Below, piece after piece: positions 8,536-8,550 of a DNA stretch of 64,000 nucleotides (within the stretch, counting starts at the first letter, position 1; every line of letters starts with the position of its first letter). Made by a program: the position numbers and the translations under genes. The stretch is from Escherichia coli. Lineage in GTDB: Bacteria > Pseudomonadota > Gammaproteobacteria > Enterobacterales > Enterobacteriaceae. The stretch is from NCBI RefSeq assembly GCF_003790525.1, contig NZ_CP033635.1; one strand, 5' to 3'. The notes below the pieces were generated by a model. It was given only the letters and a program-made list of their open reading frames with translations, did no database searches and was not told where the DNA came from.

Positions 8536-8550
8536 CAAGAATCATTCTTG
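8536..8550. promoter_or_regulatory. Perfect 15-bp palindrome CAAGAATCATTCTTG upstream of the major fimbrial subunit gene
   Basis: Read directly from sequence; lies about 80-90 bp upstream of the pilin start in the AT-rich control region. Confidence 0.3.

Follow-up and report, generated by a model that had tools for sequence, protein, structure and literature searches.

A 15-bp palindrome in the transcribed leader of the Escherichia coli F9/Fml fimbrial operon as a probable low-affinity Fur box

The stretch analysed here, called the window throughout, comprises 64,000 nucleotides of Escherichia coli contig NZ_CP033635.1 (RefSeq assembly GCF_003790525.1). The strain is SMS-3-5, with whose chromosome the window agrees at 100% identity. 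On its minus strand the window carries an operon that corresponds to the F9/Fml chaperone-usher fimbrial cluster (ydeQRST, c1931-c1936), arranged in the order major subunit, chaperone, usher, ydeS, ydeR (IS3-interrupted) and ydeQ. We deal with a 15-bp palindrome, CAAGAATCATTCTTG, situated in front of the major subunit gene fmlA, and propose that it is very probably a low-affinity Fur box in the F9/Fml leader, occupied under iron sufficiency. In ydeR, an IS3 transposase (1858-3086) is followed by a ydeR fragment (3097-3573), and because this IS3-family element interrupts the gene, SMS-3-5 probably lacks a fully working F9 operon, despite the intact regulatory region of that operon. The features to which the text refers are the following.

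7131..7149, minus strand: AAGAATGAGAATACATTAC, second Fur site, in the F9 chaperone gene; 9.69 bits, the next relevant matrix match
7896..8459, minus strand: fmlA, the F9 major subunit gene (open reading frame and annotation, 'fimA'); ATG at 8459
8460..8710, minus strand: f9 leader, 251 nt; its start at 8710 is placed by homology to the CFT073 start mapped by 5'RACE (rapid amplification of 5' cDNA ends)
8531..8549, plus strand: TAAAACAAGAATCATTCTT, best 19-mer match to the Fur weight matrix, 14.19 bits; the SMS-3-5 19-mer is identical to that of CFT073
8536..8550, no strand assigned: the palindrome, CAAGAAT-C-ATTCTTG, read directly from the sequence; conserved 13-bp core AAGAAT-N-ATTCTT
8600..8618, plus strand: AAGAACGATAATATCTTTA, weak second Fur-like element, 5.6 bits in the window, 8.8 bits for the CFT073 allele
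8717..8722, minus strand: f9 promoter -10 CATAAT, after the mapping of Wurpel et al. 2014; the -10 and start sequence is the same in the window
8741-8746, minus strand: f9 promoter -35 TAGTCA; a promoter scan recovers TAGTCA-18-CATAAT at 8746..8717
8893..9147, minus strand: truncated AraC-family (yneL-like) pseudogene upstream of the F9 operon; open reading frame, annotated as incomplete with the N-terminus missing
Search pattern for sites of the palindrome's kind: AAGAATNATTCTT

A sequence-only reading of this DNA had drawn attention to a perfect 15-bp palindrome at 8536-8550, about 80-90 bp upstream of the major pilin start, and had taken it for a candidate operator of a regulator that it did not name, the adjoining AraC gene being truncated. 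The sequence bears out the palindrome, with two perfect 7-bp arms around one central base (7-1-7); it is perfect in this sense only, since the odd base at the centre cannot complement itself. Measured from the fmlA ATG, it lies 77-91 bp upstream. The AraC-family gene is indeed annotated as a pseudogene deprived of its N-terminus; no evidence ties it to the palindrome and we agree that it is not the relevant regulator. The placement itself was incomplete. 5'RACE in strain CFT073 located the f9 start 251 nt upstream of the ATG, at a G, with a -10 CATAAT, a -35 TAGTCG and an 18-bp spacer (Wurpel et al. 2014). Counted from this start, the palindrome occupies +161..+175 and is found inside the transcribed leader, downstream of the promoter. 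As to the regulator, published chromatin immunoprecipitation peaks (ChIP-exo and ChIP-seq) of strains W, KO11FL and CFT073 point to Fur, and they sit on the palindrome, in agreement with the operator-like protein-binding site that had been suggested for this fimbrial control region.

Two things raise this palindrome above chance: it fits a Fur weight matrix, and it coincides with published Fur peaks. The matrix was built from the 14 unique CFT073 Fur sites of Table S5B of PMC7157518. The 19-mer at 8531-8549, which covers most of the palindrome, ranks second among the 127,964 window positions and is the top match of the regulatory region, with P = 0.036 when compared with dinucleotide shuffles of the AT-rich intergenic stretch. 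The palindrome hexamers AAGAAT and ATTCT(C/T) are also present in the genuine CFT073 Fur sites of iroN, chuT and mchB; when the three hexamer-sharing training sites are withdrawn from the matrix, the 19-mer scores 12.1 bits and takes rank 7. Strain 2013C-4361 carries a variant in which the palindrome is broken and the Fur score rises to 15.6, which fits selection, if any, acting on the quality of the Fur box rather than on palindromy.

The geometry is that of the minimal Fur unit, bound by one dimer. Single-dimer models of the 7-1-7 and 6-1-6 types were summarised by Chen et al. 2007 (PMC2189734), and the in vivo Fur consensus of Gao et al. 2023, TGAnAATnATTcTCA, is itself a 7-1-7 repeat, to which the palindrome conforms at all nine inner specified positions and at none of the four outer ones. 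The classical Fur box, as found at iucA and chuA (19 bp, GATAATGATAATCATTATC), consists of two overlapping 7-1-7 units, whereas the palindrome has a single one. They have in common the inverted-repeat geometry, the AAT-N-ATT core and an iron-dependent occupancy in vivo. In the mechanism that we propose, an Fe2+-Fur dimer would occupy the palindrome when iron is plentiful, as a low-affinity single-dimer 7-1-7 box in the F9 leader.

Fur occupancy of the palindrome is well supported by published peak coordinates, which we mapped onto the genome sequences; W, KO11FL and CFT073 all carry a palindrome identical to that of the window. Independent data at near-base resolution come from Gao et al. 2023, whose Fur ChIP-exo covers nine strains. 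In W, the peak at 1702182-1702194 has 10 of its 13 bp inside the palindrome (1702177-1702191), the two centres being 4 bp apart, and in KO11FL the peak at 3311273-3311285 overlaps the palindrome (3311275-3311289) over 11 of 13 bp, with centres 3 bp apart. The entries upstream of fmlA in W, KO11FL and Sakai are, all three, iron-replete only. In the CFT073 ChIP-seq of Banerjee et al. (PMC7157518), the fmlA summit is at 1778955, with a height of 79.65; the palindrome of this strain is at 1778937-1778951 (fmlA ATG at 1778860), so that the summit is 4 bp away from the edge of the palindrome and 11 bp away from the centre. At other CFT073 sites used for calibration, the distance from summit to motif centre is 0 bp (alpA), 2 bp (chuT) and 11 bp (chuA). 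For W, the offset between peak centre and 19-mer centre amounts to 7 bp at each of the two F9 sites; at the accepted targets yncE and adhP it is 8 bp, and in the same direction.

The accepted Fur site of adhP is instructive here, as it scores 14.23 bits, equal to the palindrome. The adhP and fmlA sites are alike in this score of 14.2 bits, in their ChIP-exo offset in W and in their small CFT073 ChIP-seq peaks (50 for adhP, 80 for fmlA). They differ in output: adhP is de-repressed 5.7-fold in a fur mutant, whereas fmlA falls. The second F9 site lies within the chaperone gene. The CFT073 ChIP-seq summit named 'fmlB', at 1777552, falls 1 bp from the edge of this motif, and ChIP-exo peaks of four strains (W, KO11FL, Sakai and CFT073) coincide with it as well. 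These chaperone-gene peaks are of the R/S class, with binding in iron-replete and in iron-starved cells, unlike the leader site. The two F9 peaks are separated by 1397-1403 bp in all strains, as against 1399 bp between the two motifs.

A number of observations weigh against a Fur box at this place, and the conservation and expression data given further below contribute to them. Some concern the motif. With 14.19 bits, the 19-mer does not reach the score of any of the 14 training sites (16.6-27 bits), in keeping with a weak Fur site; simple counting against the Fur consensus gives 12 matches out of 19, the level of shuffled sequence; and the outer TG/CA positions of the consensus are lacking. 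The authors' own FIMO search found no motif at the fmlA peak (PMC7157518). Others concern the position. About 160 bp downstream of the start is atypical for Fur, and the palindrome neither overlaps nor abuts the mapped promoter, so the layout of classical repression is not found. Thus, in contrast to the classical box, the palindrome combines missing outer TG/CA positions with a sub-canonical score and with a location 160 bp past the start, off the promoter. The occupancy data have their own weaknesses: the CFT073 fmlA peak has a small height of 79.65, where strong sites reach thousands, the CFT073 ChIP-exo list contains an intragenic peak only, and the Sakai coordinates were given on an earlier version of the genome, with an apparent and unverified shift of about 128-131 bp, alike at both peaks. 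The case for occupancy is made of ChIP in W, KO11FL and CFT073.

Part of the same material would suit an incidental palindrome in an AT-rich, H-NS-silenced leader, where the ChIP signal would reflect a non-specific association of Fur with AT-rich DNA. As a bare inverted repeat, the palindrome is at chance level: the window contains five perfect 7-1-7 palindromes, for 4.2 +/- 2.0 expected from Markov-1 simulations, and no second copy of this one is present within the 64 kb. Its conservation is merely that of the leader average, the CFT073 peak is weak and without a motif called by the authors, and matrix matches of about 14 bits turn up in 5 of the 53 related upstream regions; for comparable AT-rich fimbrial upstreams the rate is roughly 4-9%. 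However, three datasets place their peaks 3-11 bp from the palindrome centre, with the same offsets as at accepted Fur boxes in that experiment and with binding in iron-replete cells only, and the second F9-locus peak also sits on the next-best matrix match. If summits were placed at random within +/-200 bp, the probability that both would come this near to the top local match is estimated at about 0.004. We consequently hold an incidental palindrome to be unlikely.

Conservation does not help to decide. The segment with the palindrome is present in about 3,470 of 5,426 complete E. coli genomes. Among 16 alleles that align over the palindrome, with all identity classes represented, the complete 15-mer is retained in 13; KKo009 and a Gambian lineage of 86% identity lose the outermost pair only, and one more allele has a C-to-A change in one arm. 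Across nine haplotypes the palindrome has three variable columns, and 56% of the 15-nt windows of the leader do equally well or better. The palindrome thus does not stand out from the rest of the leader, and its conservation is uninformative on function. The conservation on which the earlier proposal was to stand or fall is accordingly found in one part and missing in another: the palindrome occurs in all major E. coli F9 haplotypes and is absent at that position in Citrobacter sp. JGM124.

This Citrobacter (76% protein identity) is the sole close relative outside E. coli in our scan of the genome collection, and its -10 is conserved while the palindrome is not at its place. A stronger Fur-like site, AAAAATAATCATTATTATA, is observed there, with 16.5 bits, at -335 from the ATG and upstream of the conserved -10. 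Judging from this motif, Fur may have acted on fimbriae of this type before the E. coli site arose. Within E. coli, two rearrangements touch the region. K-12 has a ydeT-yneL deletion whose breakpoint is near window position 8638, and for this reason it is devoid of the palindrome. In SCU-122, a rearrangement replaces the whole promoter and the upper leader; its breakpoint falls inside the palindrome (about 8543), and homology resumes at ATGATTCTTG.

Expression data concern the output of Fur binding. In published RNA-seq, fmlA decreases in fur mutants of W (log2 fur-/wt of -1.95, p = 1e-32), KO11FL (-3.21), 042 (-1.81) and Sakai (-1.30), and in CFT073 the fur/wt ratio is 0.38; overall the decrease is 2.5- to 9-fold. 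This is the opposite of classical Fur repression, whose targets go up in fur mutants. Moreover, in the CFT073 fur ryhB double mutant fmlA is back to 0.87, so that a direct output of the palindrome is no more than a possibility. Regulation of fmlA by both Fur and RyhB was inferred by Banerjee et al. (PMC7157518). The same paper is inconsistent on the sign of the effect, the Results listing fmlA as 'directly repressed by Fur' while Table S1 and the Discussion show a decrease (0.38-fold).

What palindrome-bound Fur does to fmlA we infer from these elements. The output that we tentatively place first is an occupancy with little direct effect, in which Fur would act mainly via de-repressed RyhB, as the CFT073 double mutant suggests. 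Alternatively, and with nearly the same plausibility, leader-bound Fur would modestly counter H-NS silencing, resulting in a direct iron-dependent activation by analogy with ftnA. Fe2+-Fur reportedly activates ftnA by displacing H-NS. The Fur sites of ftnA are upstream of its promoter and this activation is RyhB-independent. F9 resembles ftnA in the positive effect of Fur on an H-NS-silenced gene; it differs in that its site is in the leader and in that its fur effect is RyhB-dependent in CFT073. At F9, Wurpel et al. 2014 showed binding of H-NS to the f9 promoter fragment, as well as repression of the operon by H-NS at 37 C; the nearest matches to the H-NS high-affinity motif are at +8 and +89 of the leader, away from the palindrome. 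Rather unlikely is a third output, in which Fur would form a roadblock for, or repress, an unmapped proximal promoter; the promoter scan offers a consensus-level candidate at 8598..8569, which would put the palindrome at +12..+26. Outputs of any other kind are given a still smaller share.

The involvement of RyhB raises the question of whether the palindrome region could be the RyhB pairing site predicted by Banerjee et al. in the fmlA 5' untranslated region. The gene was flagged with a predicted site at most 200 nt upstream of the ATG, and the drop in the fur mutant is RyhB-dependent. With a RyhB sequence verified by Rfam, the best duplexes predicted for three alleles nevertheless lie at +52..+85, and +161..+175 takes part in none of the six top duplexes, so that we give almost no credit to this assignment. 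The predicted pairing region +52..+85 overlaps the 3' half of another structure, a 9-bp inverted repeat at 8639-8666, ACAACAAGT-N10-ACTTGTTGT, which at +45..+72 of the leader forms its most stable predicted local hairpin.

Since the palindrome is transcribed, it could also be primarily an RNA element. The promoter-side half of the palindrome, +162..170 (AAGAAUGAU), would pair with +103..111 (AUCGUUCUU, 8600-8608) to form the basal 9-bp helix of a hairpin of about 70 nt, with a role in mRNA stability or temperature-dependent translation. This helix is predicted with probabilities of 0.42-1.0 in all nine E. coli haplotypes, including the lineage of 86% identity, and belongs to the RNAalifold consensus; the SMS-3-5 leader folds better than shuffled sequences (z about -3.1), and a translational fmlA fusion was raised sixfold or more at 18 C (Holmes et al. 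2020). Against such a role, none of the 71 consensus pairs displays compensatory changes, the helix itself having a single one-sided change from G-U to A-U, and whole-leader z-scores are inconsistent, from -2.3 to 0.04 in other alleles. For the local hairpin of the palindrome the prediction is weak, with -3.2 kcal/mol, z = -0.96 and a probability of 0.002 within the full leader, no Rfam match is found at E <= 10 on either strand of 8300-9000, and the Citrobacter leader has no equivalent helix. The helix may also be a by-product of two oppositely oriented arrays of Fur-like hexamers. A primary function in RNA thus appears quite improbable to us, and a local RNA hairpin or terminator at the palindrome was rejected, being weak and not significant.

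One can also imagine that the two levels are superposed, the same 15 bases acting as a Fur anti-silencing site in DNA and as the basal leader helix in RNA. We regard this combination as improbable. Should it be true, a Fur dimer would sit in the midst of the H-NS-coated leader and iron sufficiency would directly relieve F9 silencing, while the RNA helix formed with the upstream Fur-like element would contribute to the cold-favoured translation of fmlA. Iron, through Fur and RyhB, and temperature, through H-NS and leader structure, would then meet on one short element.

Another dimeric regulator, of the RcsB/NarL family or a factor of another kind, might be considered as the owner of this operator. 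The half-sites AAGAAT/ATTCTT resemble the RcsB arms (A/G)GA...TC(T/C), and RcsB boxes are known in 5' leaders, for example that of flhDC. The flhDC-leader box is likewise a pseudo-palindromic site with AGA/TCT arms, yet it has an N4 spacing and outer T/A, whereas the palindrome has N5 and no outer T/A. More precisely, the RcsB consensus is TN(G/A)GA-N4-TC(T/C)NA, to be compared with AGA-N5-TCT bordered by an outer C/G in the palindrome, and this consensus pattern has no match in the window. No literature link between RcsB and F9 was found, and the Fur data already account for the palindrome; an operator for another regulator is therefore very unlikely. PhoB was rejected, since the Pho boxes that have been proposed are direct repeats and lie upstream of ydeT and ydeQ only.

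Taken as a Fur box, the palindrome belongs with the ordinary weak sites of the Fur regulon and is not the operator of a new regulator. The link between Fur and fmlA and the peak coordinates were already public; what is new is the assignment of these peaks to a 15-bp sequence and the calibration that supports it. F9/Fml fimbriae are concerned with chronic colonisation of the urinary tract, biofilm formation at low temperature and adherence to plants, and H-NS was the only F9 regulator previously discussed from a mechanistic point of view. The 15-bp assignment provides a target that can be mutated to separate direct control of F9 by iron, via Fur in the leader, from indirect control via RyhB. 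It also illustrates how cross-mapping onto public tables of ChIP-exo peaks can explain a statistically plain palindrome that was flagged by eye.

Other inverted repeats were noticed in the same region and in relatives. At 8698-8733, a perfect 11-bp inverted repeat, TAAATAACATG-N14-CATGTTATTTA, brackets the f9 -10 hexamer and the mapped start. Statistically, this repeat stands out more than the palindrome does, and its location makes it the better candidate for an operator. The major alleles have it intact, the lineage of 86% identity has an altered form, and Citrobacter lacks it. In Kluyvera and relatives, perfect palindromes GAGAAT-N3-ATTCTC are recurrent (nine loci), about 20-35 nt upstream of fimA-like major subunit genes; their half-site is similar to that of 8536-8550, while spacing and position are different.

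Two types of phase switch were examined at the locus and rejected. For a fimS-like invertible promoter, a promoter segment of about 300 bp flanked by repeats and adjacent recombinases would be expected; no recombinase gene is annotated at the F9 locus and the inverted repeats there are only 10-14 bp apart. For a Pap-like Lrp/Dam switch, which has two GATC sites, not a single GATC is present in 8300-9200. Further upstream, at 9481-9498 and 9509-9526, are two TATCC-N8-GGATA palindromes, TATCCGCTCTACGGGATA and TATCCGCGATCGCGGATA, a pattern that we take to be that of HipB operators. No hipBA genes are annotated near them in SMS-3-5, and the pair resembles operators left orphaned by the deletion of a toxin-antitoxin locus.

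Finally, two Fur-like sequences are located elsewhere in the window. Its top Fur-matrix match, GATAATGAAAAGCATTTTA, with 17.95 bits, is at 56146-56164, at the junction of two open reading frames that we presume to be rspA and rspB. At 58054-58068, TGAAAATCACTCTCA matches 12 of the 13 positions of the Fur consensus.
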